Below, in pieces: positions 48,491 through 56,200 of a stretch of DNA of 64,000 nt. The stretch is from Escherichia coli. GTDB lineage: Bacteria; Pseudomonadota; Gammaproteobacteria; Enterobacterales; Enterobacteriaceae. Under the pieces are notes generated by a model. That model was not told where the DNA came from. It worked only from the letters and a program-made list of their open reading frames with translations, and ran no database searches. Position 1 is the stretch's first letter. Every line of letters starts with the position of its first letter. The translations under genes and the position numbers were made by a program. The stretch lies in NCBI RefSeq assembly GCF_048403405.1, contig NZ_CP183129.1; one strand, given 5' to 3'.

Positions 48491-48888
48491 GATATGGGGT
48501 TTTGGTCGTTGTTAATGAGCAGGACAATCATGACCGCCAACGACTGGATTCTCCCTTGGTTTATGTTGGTGCGCATAATGTATATTATGTTAAATGTGGT
48601 GGGTTTGTTCTTAAGTTCATGTGTTCCGCTCTTTCAGTAGCTTAACTGATGAATCAGTCAGCAGCTCTTGCCGTGCAAGCTACGCGGCGGTTCGTACCAG
48701 ATTGGCCACCTCCATCTCCTGGTTCGCTTTCCCCTCCCCCCGGTAAACCTCACCCAACGTTAATTAATGATGTCAGTATGTGGGCGCTATCCTCGTATGT
48801 AAAATCCACTGACGATTACGCCCATCTGTGAAAAAAAACTCACAATGCCATTCGATGCATCTCCATACTGAACGAGGCGTTATCGTCT

Positions 48889-49436
48889 TTATCGCCCCGT
48901 AGTGGATATCAGAAAATCAATCAGGGCCTTCACTCTTTTCGTTTTACCCGCGTTTTTGGGGTAATAGAGATACACTGGCGGGTAGGTTTTCCAGTAGCTC
49001 TCCATCACCGGAATAAAACGCTCCCTGTCCGGCTGTAACTGCCAGACAGGCTCAAACTTTCTAACTGTATACCCGGATATTGCTGACAGAATTCTGCCAT
49101 CGCAGGCTTAAGAATTAACAGGTAGGCAAAACGCGAGAGCGTAATTCGCACCATCCCAGAGGGCTCCTGATGCTGGTCGCGAATGCTTTCAAGTGAGTTT
49201 TCCAGCGACTCCACCGCCGCAGCGGTCTGTTCCAGCAATAATTGACCGGTTTCCGTCAGCTCTATACGGCGGGTCGTACGCACAAAAAGCGGATGGCCGA
49301 TATACTCTTCCAGCAGCTTTAGTGCATTGCTGACGGAGGGAGGCGTAATTTCCAGTTTCCTTGCGGCTGCCGAAATATTGCCCTCCCGCGCAATGCTCTG
49401 GAAGATGCGAATCTGGTTATAAAGAGCGTTATTCAT
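48889..49436 (-). pseudogene. LysR-family regulator, frameshifted and internally shortened
   Basis: N-terminal 143-aa ORF (49005-49436) has the LysR HTH (ISAAARKLEITPPSVSNALKLLEE) and stops prematurely; a second frame (48889 to about 49075) encodes a LysR-like C-terminus (...KTKRVKALIDFLISTTGR*). Total is about 180 codons against about 300 expected. Confidence 0.55.
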
Positions 49437-49571
49437 AATGTTTTCCTAAGCAATTCTCGCCTGATTATTAAGTACAGTCTAAAAATGCTTAAGTCAATGA
49501 CCCTCTAATCTTCCTGAAATACGCCTCTTATACTTTAGTCTCTTTCTACTACGACCTGAGTTCAGGAGACT

Positions 49572-49883
49572 ATGATGCGAATTTTATGTCTGGATATCCC
49601 TGCCCCTGGAGCATCGCTGGAGAAATATGCTCCGCACCTCAACGCTGAAGCGCTGCACGCCTGGGGATTGTATAAATCAGGCTTCATCCGCGACATCTAC
49701 TTCCGTCAGGACAGACCTGGCGTCGCTATTTTTCTTGAATGTGACTCTGTCGATGAAGCGATGAACGTTATGGCCGAATTCCCGTTGGCAAAAGCAGGCT
49801 TACTAAGCTTCGAGTGTATACCGCTTGGCTCCTTTATTAACTGGGAAAATCTCTTCGCCGATGAATTTAAAAATAAAGAGTGA
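49572..49883 (+). CDS. Small dimeric alpha+beta-barrel protein, muconolactone isomerase-like
   Basis: 103-aa ORF; the pattern R(P)GV-x-FLECDSVDEAMNVMAEFPL resembles the MLI family core (...VFDV-SxEAxH-x-LxxLPL...); AGGAG Shine-Dalgarno upstream. Confidence 0.55.
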   Translation: MMRILCLDIPAPGASLEKYAPHLNAEALHAWGLYKSGFIRDIYFRQDRPGVAIFLECDSVDEAMNVMAEFPLAKAGLLSFECIPLGSFINWENLFADEFKNKE

Positions 49884-49891
49884 GGACCGAT

Positions 49892-50581
49892 ATGAAACCT
49901 GCATATAAACCAGTGCTATGTGTCGTTTCCAGCCATCCGATTAAAGGCGCATCCGGTGTACCAACCGGTTTTTTCCTGGCCGAGCTGACTCATCCGCTGA
50001 AAGTACTGGAAGATGCCGGAATAAAAACAACAATAGCCAGTATTCGCGGGGGGCAGCCACCGGTGGATGGATTTGACCTCAGCGACCCTGTTAACGCCTG
50101 GTACTGGAACGAAACCGATTTTCAGCAGCGCCTGGCAACAACACCTGCGTTATCCGAGCTGAAAGGTGCCGATTACAGCGCAGTTTTCTTTGCAGGTGGT
50201 CATGGGACCATGTGGGATTTCCGTGATAATCAGGATGCCCAGCGTATTATCCGCGAAGTGTATGAAAGTGATGGGATTGTCTCAGCCGTCTGCCACGGGC
50301 CTGCGGCATTGGTTGACGCAAAACTCAGTAGCGGCGAATACCTGATAAAAGGGAAAAATGTGGCGGCCTTTACCAACAAGGAAGAGGAAGAAGTTCACAC
50401 AACAGATGTGGTTCCCTTCCTGCTTGAAACCGCACTTCGCGAGCATGGTGCGCTTTATCATGAAGCTCCAAACTGGTCTGAAAACGTGGTTACCGACGAT
50501 CGCCTTATCACGGGGCAGAATCCCGCTTCAGCACATGGGGTTGGTGTGGCGCTGTTAAATGCACTCCGCCGGACAGCTTAA
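49892..50581 (+). CDS. DJ-1/PfpI-family (class I glutamine amidotransferase-like) protein
   Basis: About 229 aa from MKPAYKPVLCVVSS...; conserved nucleophile-elbow Cys context (AVCHGPAAL); GAGGA Shine-Dalgarno before the ATG at 49892; 8 nt after the previous stop. Confidence 0.8.
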   Translation: MKPAYKPVLCVVSSHPIKGASGVPTGFFLAELTHPLKVLEDAGIKTTIASIRGGQPPVDGFDLSDPVNAWYWNETDFQQRLATTPALSELKGADYSAVFFAGGHGTMWDFRDNQDAQRIIREVYESDGIVSAVCHGPAALVDAKLSSGEYLIKGKNVAAFTNKEEEEVHTTDVVPFLLETALREHGALYHEAPNWSENVVTDDRLITGQNPASAHGVGVALLNALRRTA

Positions 50582-50654
50582 TTAATTCATCGTTACTCAC
50601 CTTACTTGGCCGGTTTAAGTCAGCCACGATCCGGCCTTTTTTCAGGAGCTGAAT

Positions 50655-51602
50655 ATGAAAACACTACCTCCAGTCGCACTAGGTACATGGTCCTGGGGCA
50701 CAGGCTTTGCCGGCGGCGACACCGTCTTTGGTAATCATCTTTCTGATACTCAGATGGCAGAAGTGTTCACTGCGGCCATGAGTAAGGGCCTCAATCTCTG
50801 GGATACCGCAGCAGTATATGGTATGGGGAGTTCCGAGACTGCGCTGGGAGCATTAGTCCGTCAGTTTCCCCGCGAGAACATAATTTTATCCACCAAATTC
50901 ACGCCGCAGATTGCGGACAAGCAGTCTGCGCAGCCTGTCAGCGATATGCTTGAGGCCAGCCTTGGGCGCCTGGGCGTGGACGCGATTGATATCTACTGGA
51001 TCCATAATCCCCTCGACGTCGAAAAATGGACACCAGGACTGATCCCACTTTTACAAAGCGGTAAGGTAAAACGCGTAGGTGTTTCCAACCACAATCTGGC
51101 ACAAATCAGACGCGCCAATGAAATCCTTAACGCTTCCGGTTATTCCCTCAGTGCAGTACAAAATCACTACAGCCTGCTCTATCGCGCTTCTGAAGAGGCC
51201 GGGATCCTTGATTATTGCCGACAAAATAACATCACGTTCTTTGCTTACATGGTCCTGGAGCAAGGCGCGCTCAGTGGTCGTTATGATTCAAATCATCCCA
51301 TGCCTGCCGGGAGTGGCCGGGCCGAAAGTTATAACGCAGTACTGCCGCAGATAGAAAGACTAACCGCCGCCATGAAAAAAATGGGAGCCGAAAGGAATGC
51401 CAGCGTGGCACAGATAGCCATCGCATGGGCTATTGCGAAAGGTACCCTTCCCCTCGTTGGTGCGACTAAAGTCCATCACGTTCTGGACGCCGCCTGCGCT
51501 TCAGACATCCAGTTACGCGATGAGGAAATCATCCTGCTGGAACAACTCGCCGCAGAGACCAGAGTGGATACACGAGGCGCCTGGGAAAAACCGATGGTGT
51601 AA
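50655..51602 (+). CDS. Aldo/keto reductase
   Basis: 315-aa ORF with AKR fold features (WDTAAVYG, IDIYWIHNP, GVSNH). Confidence 0.85.
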   Translation: MKTLPPVALGTWSWGTGFAGGDTVFGNHLSDTQMAEVFTAAMSKGLNLWDTAAVYGMGSSETALGALVRQFPRENIILSTKFTPQIADKQSAQPVSDMLEASLGRLGVDAIDIYWIHNPLDVEKWTPGLIPLLQSGKVKRVGVSNHNLAQIRRANEILNASGYSLSAVQNHYSLLYRASEEAGILDYCRQNNITFFAYMVLEQGALSGRYDSNHPMPAGSGRAESYNAVLPQIERLTAAMKKMGAERNASVAQIAIAWAIAKGTLPLVGATKVHHVLDAACASDIQLRDEEIILLEQLAAETRVDTRGAWEKPMV

Positions 51603-51704
51603 AGCCCGTCCGGAACAGACTGTCATGAATGACACACACGAACGGGCTGTTCCGGGTGATTCTAATCTGTATCACTTTTACTGCTTTGTATGAATGGTGA
51701 GAAT

Positions 51705-52381
51705 ATGAAAATCATTTGCCTCGAAGAACATTATCTCGACAGCGAGTTAGGGCGAGCGTGTATGCCTGTTGCGCTTGAGCAGGCACCTTTCCTTGGCGAC
51801 TGGGGGAAAACCGTCGCTGATGGTCATAATCCTGACCGACTCCCTGCTTTCCCGCTTTAATAAACTGAATGTGCCACTCTATCTTCATCCCGGGTTACCG
51901 CTTAAAAGCGTACAGCAGGCCTACTTCACGGGCTTCAGCGCAGAGGTCAACGCCAGGCTTTCTATGTTTGCCTGGGGCTGGCATCACGAAGCGGGGATCC
52001 ATTTGTTGCGGCTGATGTTATCGGGCGCATTTGATAAATATCCCAACCTGCAGGTAATCAGTGGCCACTGGGGGGAGATGTTACCCTTCTGGCTCCAGCG
52101 TCTTGATGACAGCCTACCACTGGCTGCAACGGGTCTGTCACGCACGCTAACGAGAACCTTCCAGGAACACGTTTACGTTACCCCGTCATATGCTAACACT
52201 GCCGCACTTCCAGTTTATCTACGCGTTAATGGGTGCTGAAAGGATCCTGTTCTCCGTCGATTATCCCTATCAGACCCTGGACGGTGTAAAAACCTTTATA
52301 GACAGTCTGCCCGTCAACAAGGCTGAAAAAGAGGCCATCGCGTTTCGCAATGCAGAACGTTTACTGGGCATCACGGTTTAG
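51705..52381 (+). pseudogene. Amidohydrolase-2 (ACMSD/LigW-like metal-dependent hydrolase/decarboxylase) with at least two frameshifts
   Basis: Three consecutive fragments in different frames: MKIICLEEHY... (51705 to about 51860), ...ISGHWGEMLPFWLQRLDD... (track ORF 51769-52239) and ...FSVDYPYQTLDGVKTFIDSLPVNKAEKEAIAFRNAERLLGI (52190-52381). Confidence 0.5.
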
Positions 52382-52531
52382 TTCACCGTTTCATGATGAT
52401 TGAGCACATTGTGATCAGCCGACAATTATTAGTTTTTGCCTAAAAGTGAATGAGCCTTTACTGCTCTAAAAAAATAATGTTGTCACTCTATACTGGATTT
52501 AATATTCACCAAAGATGTTTAACTGATTGAA

Positions 52532-53104
52532 ATGAAAAATATCCTTGTTATTTCAGGTCATCCTGAGCTTACCCATTCCGTCGCCAATGCCACTATTCTT
52601 GATGAAGTGGAGACCGCCCTTCCCGATGTTGAGATTCGTCGTCTGGACAGGCTCTATCCGGATGGCAAATTCAACATCGCGGCGGAGCAGGAAAGCCTGC
52701 TCAGGGCCGATGTGATTGTCTGGCAGTTCCCTTTTTCCTGGTATGGGCTGCCAGGATTAATGAAAAAATGGCTGGACGAGGTCTTTGTTCACGGCTTCGC
52801 GCATGGCTCAACGGCGAAACTGGGCGGTAAAAAGCTGATCCTCTCCTTTACAACGGGAGCGCCAGAGGAGCTCTATACCGTCGACAGTTTCTTTGGCCAT
52901 ACCATTGAAGAGTATCTAATTCCGTTCGAGACCACAGCAAAACTGTGCAATCTTGAGCTGCTGGAGCCGGTTTATACCTGCGGTATCAGCTATGCCGATC
53001 GGGATGCCGACAAACTCGCGCAGCAAAAAACGCTTGCCTGGGAACACGCTTCAAGGCTTGTCGATCTGCTCAATTCCGTCGTGAATAATCCAGAGGGAGA
53101 ATAA
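52532..53104 (+). CDS. Flavodoxin-like-fold NAD(P)H:quinone oxidoreductase (KefF/KefG/YwrO-like)
   Basis: 190 aa; N-terminus MKNILVISGHPELTHSVANATIL... and the FPFSWYGLPGLMKKWLDEVF block resemble KefG-type quinone reductases. Confidence 0.75.
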   Translation: MKNILVISGHPELTHSVANATILDEVETALPDVEIRRLDRLYPDGKFNIAAEQESLLRADVIVWQFPFSWYGLPGLMKKWLDEVFVHGFAHGSTAKLGGKKLILSFTTGAPEELYTVDSFFGHTIEEYLIPFETTAKLCNLELLEPVYTCGISYADRDADKLAQQKTLAWEHASRLVDLLNSVVNNPEGE

Positions 53105-53106
53105 CA

Positions 53107-54126
53107 ATGCAGTATACCCGGCTCGGTAAAAGTAACTTACTTGTTTCCCGCATCTGCATGGGATGCATGGGGTTTGGCGATCCGTCGACGGGTCAGCATA
53201 GCTGGACGCTGGACGAAACAGCAAGCCGCGACATCATTCGCTATGGCCTTGAAAAGGGCATCAACTTTTACGATACCGCTATAGCCTACCAGAATGGCTC
53301 CAGTGAGCGATACGTTGGCCGGGCATTACGGGAGATGGCGAAACGCGATGATATCGTCCTGGCCACCAAGTTTCTGCCGCGAACCCCCGCACAAATTGCC
53401 GGAGGGATCAGCGGAAAAGAGGCAATCGCTCAATCCCTTGACCAGAGCCTGAAGAATCTGGGGATGGACTATATCGACCTCTACATCTACCACATCTGGG
53501 ATTACAACACGCCCATTATCGACGTGCTTGAAGCGTTATATGCCGCTGTTACTGCTGGCAAAGTACGAGCTGTTGGTATTTCAAACTGCTATGCCTGGCA
53601 GCTGGCGAAGGCGAACGCCCTTGCTGAACGCGAAGGGCTGACGCCCTTTGTTTCCGTACAGAGCCACTACAATCTAATTATGCGCGAAGATGAACGGGAG
53701 CTCTTCGGCCTGTGCACTGAGGATAATATCGCAATGACCCCCTATAGCGCGCTGGCCAGCGGCCGCCTCTCTCGTAAAGAAGGCTATACACGGCGAGCCA
53801 CAGAGGATGACTATGCGCGTGGAAAATATGACAGCACGGCTGAACAGGATCGCAGCATTATTGAGCGTGTAGCCGAACTGGCCGAACGCCATCTGGTGTC
53901 AATGACGGAAATATCTCTCGCTTGGCTGCTGACAAAAGTCACATCACCTGTCGTAGGGGCTACAAAAAAAGCTCATGTCGATGGCGCGGTAAACGCAGTA
54001 AATCTTCAACTAAGTCCGGAGGAAATTCAGTTTCTGGAAGAAACCTACCAGCCGCATGTTCTGACGGGGATCATGGCGCAAAATACGCCGCAAACGAAAG
54101 ATGTTAAGCAGGTCTGGATGCGATAG
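53107..54126 (+). CDS. Aldo/keto reductase (Tas/YdjG-like)
   Basis: 339 aa; AKR motifs (FYDTAIAYQNG, IDLYIYHIWD, GISNC); starts 3 nt after the preceding gene, so probably co-transcribed. Confidence 0.85.
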   Translation: MQYTRLGKSNLLVSRICMGCMGFGDPSTGQHSWTLDETASRDIIRYGLEKGINFYDTAIAYQNGSSERYVGRALREMAKRDDIVLATKFLPRTPAQIAGGISGKEAIAQSLDQSLKNLGMDYIDLYIYHIWDYNTPIIDVLEALYAAVTAGKVRAVGISNCYAWQLAKANALAEREGLTPFVSVQSHYNLIMREDERELFGLCTEDNIAMTPYSALASGRLSRKEGYTRRATEDDYARGKYDSTAEQDRSIIERVAELAERHLVSMTEISLAWLLTKVTSPVVGATKKAHVDGAVNAVNLQLSPEEIQFLEETYQPHVLTGIMAQNTPQTKDVKQVWMR

Positions 54127-54241
54127 CCCTTATTCACTTTTCCTCCTCTCGTCTTTGAGAGCGCCAGTAGCGGTCGGTTACGTTCTTACCAGCACCAGTT
54201 GATCGAACGTCTTAAACAGTAACGTCAGTAAAAAGATCATC

Positions 54242-54967
54242 GTGAAAAAGACTTTTATGCTTTTAATTTGCATGCTAATAAGCAGCCCTGTCTTTGCAAC
54301 AAAACCGGACGCGCCGAATAAGCCGGAGATGAATATCTTCGAGCTCGGCATCAGACCCGATCGGGACAACGACTTTGCAGACGTGGCCAGACAGACGATT
54401 TCCGCTTCGGTTGATCATGAAGCAGGTACACTGGCGATGTATGCCCTGCAACGCAGCGACAATTCAGGTCAGGCATTCATGTTCGAACTCTATGAAAATG
54501 AGCGTGCTTATCGCAAACATCTCAATGCCGCCCCATACAAAGCATTCGCTGCTCGTGCAGCTGACATTATTGACAGGAAGAAGAAAATTACCCTGGAGCC
54601 ACAGTTTCTGGGCGACAAACACATCATACCGAATGAACGAACTATCAATAATCTGGTGATCGTCGAAGTAAAGCCTGAATTTCAGAGCGAATTTAGAAAC
54701 ATCGTCCTTCCTGAAATGGTCGAGTCGCTCAAAGTAGAGAAAGGCGTGTTAGCCATGTATGCCGGTACAGATTCAGAGACTCCAAAACGCTGGTATTTCT
54801 ATGAGATTTACGCCAGTGAGGAGGATTATCAACTGCACCGACAAACGCTGCACTTCCTGGAATACCTCAGGCAAACGGCGCATATGAGCGCCAGGAAGGA
54901 CGCAATCCCGGTAAAACCGGTATTTCTTCGTAACAAAGGCGGAATCAAACAGGAGCCGCAACGTTGA
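54242..54967 (+). CDS. Secreted protein with tandem ABM (antibiotic-biosynthesis-monooxygenase-like) domains
   Basis: 241 aa; N-terminal signal peptide (MLLICMLISSPVFA|TKPD); two repeats of an ABM-like ferredoxin fold (LAMYALQRSDN...FMFELYENERAYRKH and LAMYAGTDSETP...YFYEIYASEEDYQLH). Confidence 0.65.
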   Translation: MKKTFMLLICMLISSPVFATKPDAPNKPEMNIFELGIRPDRDNDFADVARQTISASVDHEAGTLAMYALQRSDNSGQAFMFELYENERAYRKHLNAAPYKAFAARAADIIDRKKKITLEPQFLGDKHIIPNERTINNLVIVEVKPEFQSEFRNIVLPEMVESLKVEKGVLAMYAGTDSETPKRWYFYEIYASEEDYQLHRQTLHFLEYLRQTAHMSARKDAIPVKPVFLRNKGGIKQEPQR

Positions 54968-54982
54968 CCAGTAAGGATTAAC

Positions 54983-55786
54983 ATGAAAAGCGTACTTGCA
55001 GCAGCGGCTATGTCGCTTGTTATTTCTGATTTTGCCAATGCTGAGGAAACAAGAGGTAAAGCTATGATGAAAATAGAACCGTCAGCGATTTCGGAAGCTG
55101 ATATTCGTTCCGTCTCACCGGCTCTCGCGCGCTTTGGTCGCGAAGCTATTACTGAAGATCTGTGGACACGCGACGCCCTCTCACCGAGGGATCGTAGTGT
55201 GGTGACCGTCGCCATGCTGATTGCCCGCAACCAGCCTGCCGAGCTTAAGCACTATATTGACGTCGCTCTCGATAGCGGCGTGACGCCAGCGGAATTATCA
55301 GAAATCATTACCCATCTGGCGTTCTACTCAGGTTGGCCAAATGCAATGTCAGCCGTCAGCGTGACCAAAGCAGTATTTGAAACTCGTGGCGTCACGCCAG
55401 ATGCGCTTCCTGACACTTCTCCGGACCTGCTTCCTCTCAATCAGGAAGCAGAAAAGCAGCGTTCAGAGACAGTGGAAAAAAATGTTGGCCGAATATCTCC
55501 AGGCTTGGTTAAATTTACTGCTGACCCACTGTTCCTGGATCTCTGGCAAAGACCCGCGCTAACCCCCCGTGATAGAAGCCTGATTACGGTCAGCGCGTTA
55601 ATCGCATCTGGACAGAGCGCGCAGATTGGCTATCACCTTAACAGAGCGATGGATAATGGACTTTCTGCTGAGGAAGCTGGGGAGATCGTTACCCAAGCCG
55701 CGTTTTACGCTGGCTGGCCAAACGCATTTACCGCTGCTCCGGTTGTGGGAGAGGTGCTAAACAATCGATCATCGAGTAAAAGGTAA
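54983..55786 (+). CDS. Secreted protein with tandem carboxymuconolactone-decarboxylase (CMD/AhpD-like) domains
   Basis: 267 aa; signal peptide (MKSVLAAAAMSLVISDFANA); two CMD-like repeats (LSPRDRSVVTVAMLIARNQ...HLAFYSGWPNA and LTPRDRSLITVSALIASGQ...QAAFYAGWPNA). Confidence 0.7.
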   Translation: MKSVLAAAAMSLVISDFANAEETRGKAMMKIEPSAISEADIRSVSPALARFGREAITEDLWTRDALSPRDRSVVTVAMLIARNQPAELKHYIDVALDSGVTPAELSEIITHLAFYSGWPNAMSAVSVTKAVFETRGVTPDALPDTSPDLLPLNQEAEKQRSETVEKNVGRISPGLVKFTADPLFLDLWQRPALTPRDRSLITVSALIASGQSAQIGYHLNRAMDNGLSAEEAGEIVTQAAFYAGWPNAFTAAPVVGEVLNNRSSSKR

Positions 55787-56200
55787 CATTACTGAACACT
55801 AAAACCTGACGCACATCACAACATTAGAACGAACAGTTCATGAACCAATAAGCGTAACATCGAGTGATTTATGGACAGCGTTTAACACAGTTATGAACCA
55901 AAACTGAGTTCATAACTGTGAGTTTGAATCGCCATTTGATTAATATCCATTTAAAACAGTTTGTTATGCTGTTTCTGGTGCTGAAGTCAATTATGTATAT
56001 CCCTCAAACCCAGAATAGTTAAATGGAATTTGAGTGATGCGAAGCGATTTTCCAGTCGTCGTTATTACTTCAGGGTTCCAGAACATAAAGCCTCTCCTCT
56101 TTCATGATTGGCCTGTGCATACCGGATATAGGCTGGCTGGTATGCAGGTTTGCCGTTTGCCGCATCTTCCCTGCGTTGAAGAGTCAGGCTGGCAAACCGC

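Follow-up and report, generated by a model that had tools for sequence, protein, structure and literature searches.

Published GInts follow a plan in which a 5' ginABCD operon precedes the cargo and a poorly conserved, AT-rich 3' end of 0.2-0.4 kb, and show imperfect direct repeats of 10-17 nt with staggered cuts of 6-7 nt (PMC5385486). Also described are the IMEXs (the CTX, VGJ and TLC phages, the gonococcal genetic island, and EludIMEX-1/EcloIMEX of Enterobacter), which are recombinase-free DNA that enters dif via the host XerC/XerD, and those with non-phage cargo exist in Enterobacter (PMC5357621, PMC7855592). [quoted passage not shown] In the 64-kb stretch of E. coli DNA that we analysed (the window), 48596-56017 quite likely represents the remnant of a GInt-type integrative element that lacks ginABCD and carries a horizontally acquired, LysR-controlled detoxification operon, decayed in E. 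coli. The cargo is of an ordinary kind; the location is more interesting than a first-pass annotation of this DNA had recognised.

Extent of the island and its junction with dif

Alignment against three empty sites, in each of which 48595 is joined straight to 56018 with a single GTTAAAT, sets the borders at exactly 48596-56017 (~7.4 kb), with hipA and the yneL fragment as neighbours. The first-pass annotation was right that a block absent from K-12 lies here, as K-12 MG1655 and HS both have the empty site (hipA, ~300 bp, then yneL). Its interval proved real, but it had counted yneL within it and taken the truncated AraC gene for a flanking regulator of the island. In fact, 56018-56455, yneL included, also occurs in island-free strains, and yneL is a native pseudogene, truncated just as much in island-free HS and K-12. 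A search of E. coli genomes, as the annotation had proposed, found at least 80% of the interval in 428 of 5,426 complete genomes, the LysR piece in 483 and the right end in 488; the island is a genuine accessory block of about 9% of E. coli (~480-490 of the 5,426). The features at its two borders are these:

48568..48595 (+), dif, the XerC/XerD chromosome dimer resolution site, GGTGCGCATAA TGTATA TTATGTTAAAT
48596..48661 (+), putative GInt 5' end remnant, in intact elements the sequence between dif and ginA
55787..56017 (+), putative GInt 3' end, an AT-rich segment that carries CAAACCCA at 56005-56012 and two AGTTCAT motifs and terminates in ...CCTCAAACCCAGAATA
56014..56024 (+), attR, AATAGTTAAAT, an imperfect direct repeat of the dif XerD arm, with the core GTTAAAT at 56018-56024
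56189..56455 (+), yneL, AraC-family C-terminal fragment, native flank outside the island (RefSeq label 'missing N-terminus')

The 28-bp dif adjoins the left border directly. It exactly matches the E. coli dif sequence of PMC3025954, the identical 28-mer sits between yneL and hipA in K-12, and KOPS motifs converge on it. The repeats flanking the island are 11 nt long and imperfect (TTATGTTAAAT / AATAGTTAAAT), with a common 7-nt core in the XerD arm; the last 11 nt of dif would thus be attL and its last 7 nt (48589-48595) the putative crossover core. The attR junction is also found in L011, L014, L101 and L107. Other E. coli have a filamentous prophage at this dif, on its other (XerC) side. Neither the adjacency to dif nor the two GInt ends had been noticed in the first-pass annotation.

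Relatives of the two ends

The 5' remnant holds one AGTTCAT motif and, at 48600-48607, TGGGTTTG, which together with CAAACCCA of the 3' end forms an 8-bp inverted repeat. Of the window's seven AGTTCAT motifs, three fall in the two end segments. Missing from the empty sites, the 66-bp 5' end is 92% identical to the H9Ecoli DNA (L098/L101) that separates dif from the first integrase gene, is also common to L107 (strain G4/9), L104 (Citrobacter) and L096, and has a 41-bp part on plasmid L099. The ~240-bp 3' end gave 73% identity to that of the complete 42.5-kb GInt in G4/9, the terminus CCTCAAACCCAGAATAGTTAAAT being identical in both, ~95% to L101, L011 and L014, and 97% to the end lying 3' of the ginABC module in SW07091; ginABC modules followed by this same 3' end occur in H9Ecoli and SW07091. 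In Serratia, Rahnella and the Enterobacter mori plasmid, the CMD gene is not followed by such an end. L011 has the same 3' end with another sequence right after dif. If joined, the element ends would read ...CCCAGAATAGTTAAAT-GTGGTGGGTTTG....

In G4/9, the same ends enclose unrelated cargo (restriction-modification, Hachiman and mrk fimbriae). A module of integrase, integrase, large protein and small protein directly follows a dif-like site at two Vibrio loci, in Providencia and in Citrobacter, and the recombinase end is found to the right of dif-like sites on plasmids as well. On E. coli plasmids, the module match extends into the dif bases of the query, and on plasmid pRHB30-C10_5 a remnant of this 5' end comes after a perfect dif. 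This module presumably corresponds to ginABCD; a recombinase domain was not detected in its 845-aa third protein.

Like the published GInts (PMC5385486), the island keeps a recognisable tripartite plan (5' end, cargo and ~0.24-kb AT-rich 3' end) and is flanked by imperfect direct repeats with a perfect core, and same-ended elements in other E. coli carry the four-gene module at the 5' end together with defence cargo. Unlike them, this copy is without any ginABCD, its cargo consists of a redox operon where theirs is made up of genes for defence, resistance or toxins, and its target is the XerD arm of dif, a name not found as a whole word in the GInt, SE and hotspot papers searched. Since no ginABCD gene or fragment lies within the window, it is the two short ends that point to GInt ancestry. 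We found no genome with ginABCD and an intact operon in one element; H9Ecoli has a CMD remnant of 96 nt only, which could equally reflect a GInt that inserted beside an older island, with a deletion afterwards.

Elements of this kind would bring their own recombination genes, ginABCD, and those of this clade appear to recombine at the 7-nt GTTAAAT, with which the XerD-binding arm of dif ends on its outer side. Recombination at this outer core would rebuild dif intact towards hipA, with the imperfect AATAGTTAAAT left on the far side. The present copy would have retained both ends and lost ginABCD, and with these genes its self-mobility.

Alternatively, the island could be an IMEX: it adjoins dif, codes for no recombinase at present and has a functional dif remaining on one side, and TGTATA, the dif central region, lies twenty bases inside the right end behind a weak XerC-arm-like sequence. 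The Enterobacter IMEXs with non-phage cargo, and the plasmid on which a perfect dif leads into the island's left-end sequence, also point this way. We consider it quite improbable nonetheless, as the junction falls within the outermost 7 nt of the XerD arm, away from the central region where XerC/XerD cut, and as a second XerC/XerD site is absent. At the far end, the chromosome does not regain its XerD arm (AATAGTTAAAT stands in place of TTATGTTAAAT), and the best dif-like 28-mer there matches at only 14/28 positions (5/11, 6/6 and 3/11; manual count), near chance for the sequence scanned. Moreover, both ends belong to elements with their own tyrosine recombinases, and intact relatives carry these.

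Cargo genes and their decay

Between the two ends of this presumed GInt remnant, the cargo reads as follows:

48745..48857 (+), leftover from upstream of a 345-aa aldo/keto reductase (AKR) gene, marking a lost AKR / AKR / second-LysR module
48889..49436 (-), LysR-family regulator pseudogene, HTH and linker kept, effector-binding domain partly deleted
49437..49574 (no strand), divergent control region, conserved block ...GATTATTAAGTACAGTCTAAA.ATGCTTAAGTCAAT...CTAATCTT...TATACT
49575..49883 (+), 102-aa protein, predicted dimeric alpha/beta-barrel (muconolactone isomerase / YciI-like) fold
49892..50581 (+), DJ-1/PfpI-family protein, PF01965, Cys-His motif AVCHGP
50655..51602 (+), aldo/keto reductase 1, 315 aa, PF00248
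51705..52381 (+), Amidohydrolase_2 pseudogene, hydroxybenzoate-decarboxylase (LigW) subgroup, spread over three reading frames
52532..53104 (+), Flavodoxin_2 NAD(P)H:quinone oxidoreductase, KefF/KefG-like, 190 aa, PF02525
53107..54126 (+), aldo/keto reductase 2, 339 aa, PF00248, NCBIfam matches under cut-off
54127..54241 (no strand), intergenic scar, ~953 bp missing at ~54140 (DUF1330 and a second Flavodoxin_2 gene)
54242..54967 (+), tandem-ABM protein, N-terminal signal peptide, PF03992, RefSeq start 54272
54983..55786 (+), tandem-CMD (PcaC-like) protein, N-terminal signal peptide, PF02627, no Cys

The open reading frames lie where the first-pass annotation had placed them, and its gene families hold at family level. 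Identical proteins encoded by other E. coli assemblies have precomputed Pfam hits to HTH_1 and LysR_substrate, DJ-1_PfpI, Aldo_ket_red (twice), Amidohydro_2 (fragments), Flavodoxin_2, ABM and CMD. NCBIfam gave family-level matches only, every one under its curated cut-off: HchA and PfpI for the DJ-1/PfpI protein, YdjG-type methylglyoxal reductase as the best for aldo/keto reductase 1 (117 bits vs 550), KefF for the Flavodoxin_2 protein (149 vs 210) and PcaC for the tandem-CMD protein (117 vs 155.7). The 102-aa protein, annotated as muconolactone-isomerase-like, has neither a Pfam nor an NCBIfam match, though its predicted fold agrees (AlphaFold2 pLDDT 92.6; Foldseek top matches ClcF, TftG, HI0828 and 1MLI, TM ~0.7). 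Full-length PDB homologues are 4G9Q for tandem-CMD (269 aa, '4-carboxymuconolactone decarboxylase', E = 1e-73) and 3MCS and 3F44 for tandem-ABM with its two ABM stretches (219-220 aa, 'putative monooxygenase', E = 1e-24 and 1e-19); these depositor names are family-level labels, and we know of no substrate or activity assigned to the three. Signal-peptide-like N-termini are kept in form by tandem-ABM orthologues and recur across genera in tandem-CMD.

The annotated picture of an acquired module under decay is supported, the extent of the decay having been understated. The amidohydrolase is indeed a pseudogene, with a 354-bp internal deletion at a 14-bp repeat (~51826-51839) and further frameshifts, intact homologues having 344-349 aa; its PDB relatives are 3NUR, LigW, 2,3-DHB decarboxylase and gamma-resorcylate decarboxylase. 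Two whole genes and the upstream module are gone as well. That module precedes the operon in the fuller versions L011 and L100 (the E. mori plasmid), and its leftover at 48745-48857 is 90% identical to L100 349-460 and 79% to L011 3140-3196. At the scar, position 9002 of L001 aligns to both 12808 and 13761 of L011, and likewise for L013, L015 and L014. All E. coli copies examined lack the 354 bp of the amidohydrolase, DUF1330, the second Flavodoxin_2 gene and the upstream AKR/LysR module. Complete versions of the operon encode an MLI/YciI-fold protein, DJ-1/PfpI, a pair of aldo/keto reductases, a LigW-type decarboxylase, a pair of Flavodoxin_2 quinone reductases, DUF1330, and apparently exported tandem-ABM and tandem-CMD proteins; in E. 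coli, the decarboxylase is dead.

The LysR regulator is inactivated as annotated; the lesion described as a frameshift is a net 352-bp internal deletion at ~49054-49057, with 3-4 nt of microhomology and the 3' part out of frame (alignment to strain 4621, in which it is intact with 299 aa). The other E. coli copies examined have an intact 299-aa regulator, and the deletion is absent from the best 25 complete-genome matches; it is private to this sequence. The control region contains a candidate LysR box (TTA-N9-TAA) and a candidate activator-type promoter, and its block is conserved in 18 loci from ~10 genera, regardless of the next gene; generic promoter and terminator scans gave nothing above chance level. 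As the effector domain of the activator is deleted here, the surviving genes of the operon are probably uninducible.

Origin and predicted function of the operon

The cargo shares 90-93% DNA and 84-98% protein identity with an operon in Serratia ficaria, Rahnella rivi, Pantoea and another enterobacterium, and ~91% with that on a 214-kb E. mori plasmid; the chromosomal loci among these have no dif within 10 kb. By this comparison, the cargo is a horizontally acquired operon, under a divergent LysR activator and a conserved control region. The block could otherwise be ancestral E. coli DNA, lost in most lineages by deletion between the two GTTAAAT repeats, which would suit the 7-bp direct repeat around it, the exactly one copy in empty sites, the absence of mobility genes and a G+C (49.7%) close to that of the window (47.5%). 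Such a history is highly improbable, since the identity to Serratia and Rahnella is far above the expectation for vertical inheritance between these genera, homology with two other genera (L011; L014, Enterobacter sichuanensis) ends at the same GTTAAAT before unrelated flanks, the same ends bound unrelated cargo in G4/9, and ~9% of genomes carry the block.

Around a constant core of LysR, control region and tandem-CMD, the enzymes differ by genus, which fits a stress or detoxification regulon better than a fixed catabolic pathway. From family assignments only, the operon is probably a regulon that detoxifies quinones, reactive carbonyls and phenolic acids, which, if this reading is true, would be useful to plant- and soil-associated enterobacteria; no enzyme within it has been characterised to our knowledge. 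The annotation's aromatic and lactone metabolism was not demonstrated, and, as it had stated, no named operon corresponds. A catabolic pathway for an aromatic compound or a lactone, running from decarboxylase through monooxygenase to lactone isomerase and CMD, is unlikely: a linear pathway would not tolerate mix-and-match content with a minimum of LysR + ABM + CMD or LysR + reductase + CMD, and every version lacks a ring-cleavage dioxygenase, a transporter and a CoA-transferase/thiolase step. The ABM and CMD proteins, moreover, appear exported, the remaining enzymes having no signal peptide, and aldo/keto reductases, quinone reductases and DJ-1 are typical electrophile-detoxification families. 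In favour of catabolism are the decarboxylase, closest to LigW and to 2,3-dihydroxybenzoate, gamma-resorcylate and salicylate decarboxylases, the fold of the 102-aa protein, which is that of TftG and of the chloromuconolactone isomerase ClcF, and CMD domains that are PcaC-like and without the AhpD CxxC motif.

The predicted detoxification operon is best compared with the MdaB-YgiN quinone redox cycle and electrophile-response regulons such as NemR/YqhC (E. coli) or MhqR/YodB (Bacillus). Like these, it places aldo/keto reductases, a DJ-1/glyoxalase III-type protein, a Flavodoxin_2 NAD(P)H:quinone reductase and an ABM protein of the 'quinol monooxygenase' type under a single regulator. Unlike them, its regulator is of the LysR type, its ABM and CMD proteins are tandem-domain and apparently exported, and a LigW-type decarboxylase, an MLI-fold protein and DUF1330 are among its products.

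Borders and gene content of the island

Alignment with three island-free strains joined window position 48595 directly to 56018, and because these empty sites (the hipA-yneL intervals of such strains) meet at this point, we place the island at 48596-56017. The 7-bp sequence GTTAAAT is present as a single copy in the empty sites and once at each edge of the island. In K-12 MG1655 and HS, hipA is followed by ~300 bp and then by yneL, and so the first-pass annotation was right that the island is not in K-12. Among 5,426 complete E. coli genomes, at least 80% of window 48491-56455 is found in 428, the LysR piece in 483, and the final 228 bp of the island in 488. On the right flank, 56018-56455, including yneL, is native DNA, and yneL is equally truncated in the island-free strains; it does not regulate the island. 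The island ORFs listed in that annotation were all recovered, and are as follows.

Genes and gene fragments of the island and its right flank (window coordinates, strand, description)
49005-49436, minus strand, LysR N-terminal fragment, 143 codons; the out-of-frame rest extends to 48889
49575-49883, plus strand, ORF of 102 aa
49892-50581, plus strand, DJ-1/PfpI protein (PF01965)
50655-51602, plus strand, aldo/keto reductase 1 (AKR1; Pfam)
51705-52381, plus strand, amidohydrolase in three overlapping fragments (Pfam)
52532-53104, plus strand, Flavodoxin_2 oxidoreductase (Pfam)
53107-54126, plus strand, aldo/keto reductase 2 (AKR2; Pfam)
54242-54967, plus strand, tandem-ABM protein (Pfam)
54983-55786, plus strand, tandem-CMD protein (Pfam)
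56201-56455, yneL AraC fragment, downstream of the CMD gene, native DNA

Every family in the island other than that of the 102-aa protein is backed by Pfam (precomputed for identical proteins in other assemblies), and the earlier family assignments thus stand for all but this protein, which matches no profile and is placed by its fold only. With NCBIfam, the island proteins gave family-level matches only, all far under the curated cut-offs. Rfam at gathering thresholds gave no match across 46.5-57.5 kb, and generic promoter and terminator scans of the region stayed at chance level. A 60-aa ORF at 48649-48831, which sits in end and junction debris, was set aside as spurious.

The dif site and the element ends

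The 28 bases directly to the left of the island (48568-48595) are dif, GGTGCGCATAATGTATATTATGTTAAAT, as the sequence is given for E. coli (PMC3025954). K-12 has an identical 28-mer between yneL and hipA (1,590,750-1,590,777), and the GTTAAAT repeat is the outer end of its XerD-binding arm. All nine KOPS (GGGNAGGG) in the window point towards dif and none points away, with four on the plus strand to its left (18522, 33630, 44811, and 45591) and five on the minus strand to its right (48732, 49598, 51445, 52617, and 62651). Four of these last five are inside the 7.4-kb island, and their polarity agrees with the FtsK-loading direction needed beside dif; this orientation could reflect either selection or chance (~1 in 16).

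GInts are integrative elements with their own recombination genes, and are laid out as 5' ginABCD, cargo, and a poorly conserved AT-rich 3' end of 0.2-0.4 kb (PMC5385486). Their flanking 10-17-nt imperfect direct repeats are attI/attB chimeras left by 6-7-nt staggered cuts, and ginABCD, comprising three tyrosine-recombinase-type genes and a small gene, is required for both integration and excision (PMC5385486). In the window, attL TTATGTTAAAT (48585-48595) and attR AATAGTTAAAT (56014-56024) are likewise imperfect direct repeats with a perfect 7-nt core, and these element/target chimeras have the length expected of GInts, fit such staggered cuts, and correspond to a single copy in the empty sites. 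Next to dif, the island begins with 66 bp (GTGGTGGGTTTGTTCTTAAGTTCATG...) that the empty sites do not have; they are 88-92% identical to what follows dif in two E. coli strains, 2273-PO3 and H9Ecoli, and are also common to E. coli G4/9 and Citrobacter amalonaticus. In 2273-PO3, H9Ecoli, and G4/9, this end leads directly into two tyrosine-recombinase genes and a large ORF; a small fourth ORF is also kept in H9Ecoli and G4/9, whose elements with the same ends carry a 507/554/845/167-aa module, while the second recombinase and the large ORF are kept in C. amalonaticus. The first two module proteins have weak matches to integrase models. The 845-aa protein found no match in NCBIfam, PHROGs, Pfam, PADLOC, and PDB sequences, nor did the 167-aa protein in NCBIfam, PHROGs, and PADLOC. 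Homologous recombinase modules stand directly behind dif-like sites in Vibrio (two loci), Providencia rettgeri, and Citrobacter as well as in E. coli, in keeping with the same-target habit of GInts.

At the other end, window 55777-56024 is 73% identical to the 3' end of the G4/9 element (42.5 kb, with type I restriction-modification, Hachiman, and mrk fimbrial genes as cargo), the terminal 23 nt being identical (...CCTCAAACCCAGAATAGTTAAAT), and has the short, AT-rich, poorly conserved character (0.2-0.4 kb) of a GInt 3' end. Elements with recombinase genes in H9Ecoli and SW07091 also terminate in the window type of 3' end (95-97% identity), which in H9Ecoli still has 96 nt left over from the CMD gene attached. 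The two island ends share an 8-bp inverted repeat (TGGGTTTG / CAAACCCA), and three of the seven copies of AGTTCAT in the 64-kb window fall within the two short end segments. However, only the first 66 bp after dif are homologous to the GInt 5' end, and no integrase ORF is found anywhere in 48596-56017, nor does ginABCD follow the 5' end. Because the family's defining feature is absent, we file the island as a GInt-derived remnant and not as a GInt, and conclude that it is in all probability a GInt stripped of ginABCD. We regard a mobile-element origin as very probable, and our account of the island as a whole as likely.

Other routes of entry fit the junctions less well. The cuts made by XerC and XerD flank the 6-bp central region of dif, and an IMEX, which enters dif via these host recombinases, would leave a second site with the chromosomal XerD arm. 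Instead, the exchange point is within the XerD arm, the far junction reads AATA in place of TTAT and retains only the outer 7 nt of the arm, and the window has no second site within five mismatches of dif; a TGTATA occurs 20 bp in from the right end, but the 28-mer around it agrees with dif at 14 positions only. On the strength of the XerD-arm crossover and the absence of a second dif-like site, Xer-mediated integration was rejected. DDE transposition with a 7-bp target duplication was also rejected, there being no transposase, the inverted repeats being subterminal, and the intact relatives having tyrosine recombinases. Membership of the SEs (strand-biased circularizing integrative elements) fails on gene order, which is int-tfp-int-srap in SEs (PMC10214605) and int-int-large-small in the module adjacent to dif. 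Alternatively, strains lacking the island might have lost it by deletion, which is unlikely, since the homology in an enterobacterial locus with a fuller operon (L011) and in Enterobacter sichuanensis ends at the same GTTAAAT and then gives way to unrelated flanks.

Origin, probable function and decay of the cargo

The cargo is 90-93% identical in DNA, and 84-98% in protein, to the copies in Serratia, Rahnella, Pantoea, and L011. A DNA identity of 90-93% is far above what would be expected from vertical descent between these genera, and no dif was found within 10 kb of the operon in the Serratia, Rahnella, Pantoea, and Pectobacterium loci; for these two reasons we take the operon to have been captured as cargo. 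Across ~20 enterobacterial loci, the constant parts are an orthologous LysR gene, the divergent control region, and a terminal tandem-CMD gene. The enzymes between LysR and CMD vary, down to LysR + ABM + CMD or LysR + one reductase + CMD. The control region, in 18 loci, has a strongly conserved block with a TTA-N9-TAA dyad, which is a candidate for the T-N11-A operator expected of LysR regulators, and a TATACT -10 box. The comparison of loci shows what would be a conserved, mobile regulon scaffold in plant-associated enterobacteria, made up of LysR, the control region, and a putatively exported tandem-CMD core.

Both the ABM and CMD proteins have signal-peptide-like N-termini, a form kept in the Rhizobiales and Pseudomonas homologues. 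The CMD protein, near PDB 4G9Q, consists of two CMD domains behind a predicted signal peptide; it is without cysteine, and hence without the catalytic CxxC of AhpD, and so is not an AhpD-type peroxidase, and its score against TIGR02425 (PcaC) is 117.1 bits, below the cut-off of 155.7. The ABM protein resembles PDB 3MCS and 3F44, and the amidohydrolase, a predicted decarboxylase, is similar to 3NUR, to LigW, and to decarboxylases of 2,3-dihydroxybenzoate, gamma-resorcylate, and salicylate. Against the KefF and KefG equivalogs, the Flavodoxin_2 protein scores 149 bits (cut-off 210) and 117 bits (cut-off 240), respectively, short of both, and no kef channel gene was found in any cluster version examined. 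The DJ-1 protein has the Cys-His motif AVCHGP and scores 66.7 bits against HchA (cut-off 365). The 102-aa protein is predicted to form a muconolactone-isomerase/YciI barrel (pLDDT 92.6), for which the best fold matches are ClcF, TftG, HI0828, and 1MLI (TM ~0.7 at 14-16% identity for ClcF and 1MLI). In sequence, its only Pfam hit is YCII at E = 0.34, with no match to the MIase family, and a search of PDB sequences returned chance matches only. The "superoxide dismutase" label that NCBI gives to some of its homologues was rejected, as it has no profile or structural match.

Given the families present (quinone reductases, AKRs, DJ-1, and ABM), the mix-and-match content, and the lack of ring-cleavage, transport, or beta-oxidation-type steps, we favor a detoxification reading, in which the cargo, judged by its protein families, has about an even chance of being a regulon, activated by LysR, that protects against quinones, reactive carbonyls, and phenolic acids. 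That it encodes a defined catabolic pathway is, by comparison, quite improbable. In itself, the cargo is a routine, putative detoxification cluster, one that is dying in E. coli.

In the window, the decay extends to the LysR gene, which elsewhere, in other E. coli copies and in the orthologues, is a complete, divergently oriented regulator with HTH_1 and LysR_substrate domains. A near-identical E. coli, strain 4621, equals the window across the interval except for 352 extra bases within LysR, and there the protein is intact (299 aa). In the window, the deletion has its junction at ~49054-49057 with 3-4 nt of microhomology, removes 352 bp of the substrate-binding domain, and puts the remainder out of frame. 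As LysR is undeleted in all 25 best complete-genome hits, we take the deletion to be private to the window sequence. The activator is thus without its effector domain, and the six surviving enzyme genes are therefore probably uninduced. Intact homologues of the amidohydrolase have 344-349 aa and match 3NUR and LigW. In the window, ~228 codons are left over three frames in place of a full-length TIM barrel of ~340 aa. A 354-bp deletion at a 14-bp repeat is common to the E. coli copies examined, together with further frameshifts and lineage-specific variants. In two E. coli loci (L007 12131-12718 and L009 12119-12721), the region is ~89 bp shorter and its fragments are fused into one ORF of 195-200 aa, which is another decay state of the same pseudogene.

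Fuller clusters are found in Serratia ficaria, Rahnella rivi, Pantoea, the enterobacterium of L011, and on a 214-kb Enterobacter mori plasmid (L100), where the decarboxylase is intact and where DUF1330 and a second Flavodoxin_2 gene lie between AKR2 and ABM. Relative to these, E. coli lacks exactly 953 bp between AKR2 and ABM. In L011 and on the E. mori plasmid, the operon is preceded by an AKR/AKR/second-LysR module, and as window 48745-48857 is 90% identical to the stretch upstream of the extra AKR gene on that plasmid, this module has also been lost from the island. Between this remnant and that of the GInt 5' end are ~83 bp (48662-48744, with a C-rich run) that had no match among the comparison sequences.

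The first-pass annotation had proposed an acquired module under decay, with one enzyme and both flanking regulators inactivated. The module and the broken enzyme (the amidohydrolase) are borne out, and the decay goes further, in that the 953 bp with two genes and the upstream module are gone. For the regulators, LysR is inactivated, by the 352-bp deletion and not by a plain frameshift, but yneL is native and no part of the island. As a whole, the original observation is upheld, and its interpretation was right only in part.

Other elements at dif and the hipA-yneL hotspot

The hipA-ydeT interval is hotspot #20 in a survey of E. coli defence islands, found in 783 genomes and occupied in 62, and GInts are reported as defence carriers at several E. 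coli hotspots (PMC10121019). They occur in 7.5% of Escherichia replicons (PMC10214605). As a whole word, dif is absent from the GInt, SE, and hotspot papers searched (including PMC5385486, PMC10214605, and PMC10121019), and we found no description in the literature searched of GInts targeting dif or of the operon's gene combination, which is no proof of novelty. What is added here is the identification of the island as a gutted GInt in the XerD arm of dif; the gene cluster is itself ordinary.

A match to the module that runs into the query's dif bases is found in several large E. coli plasmids, with complete ginABCD modules of this kind on plasmids of 180-450 kb. The plasmid pRHB30-C10_5 has a perfect dif and a 5'-end remnant, and integration of a plasmid via its own dif-like site was considered in this regard; it was set aside for a GInt remnant on the plasmid, which we prefer because complete ginABCD modules adjoin dif-like sites on other E. 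coli plasmids.

Where the island sits is of more consequence than what it carries. On our reading, the hipA-yneL hotspot is dif itself, and its XerD-side islands bear GInt ends and go in without destroying dif. If so, this would provide a mechanistic reason for the known hotspot, and AATAGTTAAAT scars beside dif would be a simple signature for tracing past insertions. It would also raise the question of how large dif-side insertions coexist with FtsK/KOPS-guided dimer resolution.

A wider proposal may also be put forward, though we consider it rather unlikely: one GInt clade would use the outer seven bases of the XerD arm, in dif and in plasmid Xer sites, as its attachment site in Vibrionaceae and Enterobacterales, rebuilding it at each insertion. 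By the same proposal, dif would be two-sided, taking up Xer-dependent phages next to its XerC arm and islands that integrate by themselves next to its XerD arm. Shells lacking ginABCD, with both recombination ends retained, could then be moved in trans by a GInt resident on the chromosome or a plasmid, and such mobilisation would explain why three genera share this redox cargo and 3' end at dif.

Several further arrangements were observed at or near dif. In G4/9 (L107 43723-43801), an extra 72-bp segment separates the GInt attR from the native flank and closes with another copy of CCCTAATAGTTAAAT; it resembles a scar left there by an earlier element, in line with repeated insertions. In E. coli muskdeer13-4 (L097 9107-16024), the place immediately to the right of dif is taken by another island, likewise decayed. 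It contains fragments of an acetylxylan esterase, an AEC transporter, and a LysR gene, a cupin gene with a frameshift, and genes for a CMD protein, an alpha/beta hydrolase, and an SDR. Over its first ~90 bp it matches what comes after the island right end in L011, which suggests either stacked modules or dif-flanking DNA moved between genera. On the XerC side of dif, three island-bearing E. coli loci (L003 5997-8382, L005, and L008) have a truncated hipA, and then a SIR2_2 protein, which matches the PADLOC candidate defence system PDC-S25 (E = 2e-82), and a 272-aa gene. In E. coli O55:H7 DEC5E (L095 1-3980), it is a filamentous prophage that adjoins the XerC side, in place of the hipBA side, with genes for a Zot-family protein, a pIV/GspD-like secretin, and DUF2523; we take it to resemble a CUS-1-type IMEX. 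In one Vibrio locus (L102), a DUF3653 gene (3507-3935) is just left of a hybrid dif-like site (4175-4202), with a ginABCD-type element on the right. DUF3653 is presumably the XafT-type Xer activation factor of TLC-like IMEXs, and if so, both kinds of dif parasite would be on opposite sides of one Vibrio site.

Pieces of the island of ~410-430 bp, at ~90% identity, also occur on E. coli and Klebsiella plasmids of 60-130 kb; they cover part of the ABM gene, or part of the CMD gene together with the 3' end. Elsewhere in the window, the ECSE_1600-family autotransporter (41271-46691), a pseudogene (yneO) in K-12, is intact as a 1,806-aa ORF. From 56841-58523 onward, a fimA-like gene and its chaperone are intact, and in strain 4621 the usher continues past them; in K-12 and HS, this fimbrial stretch is cut down to the truncated usher ydeT.
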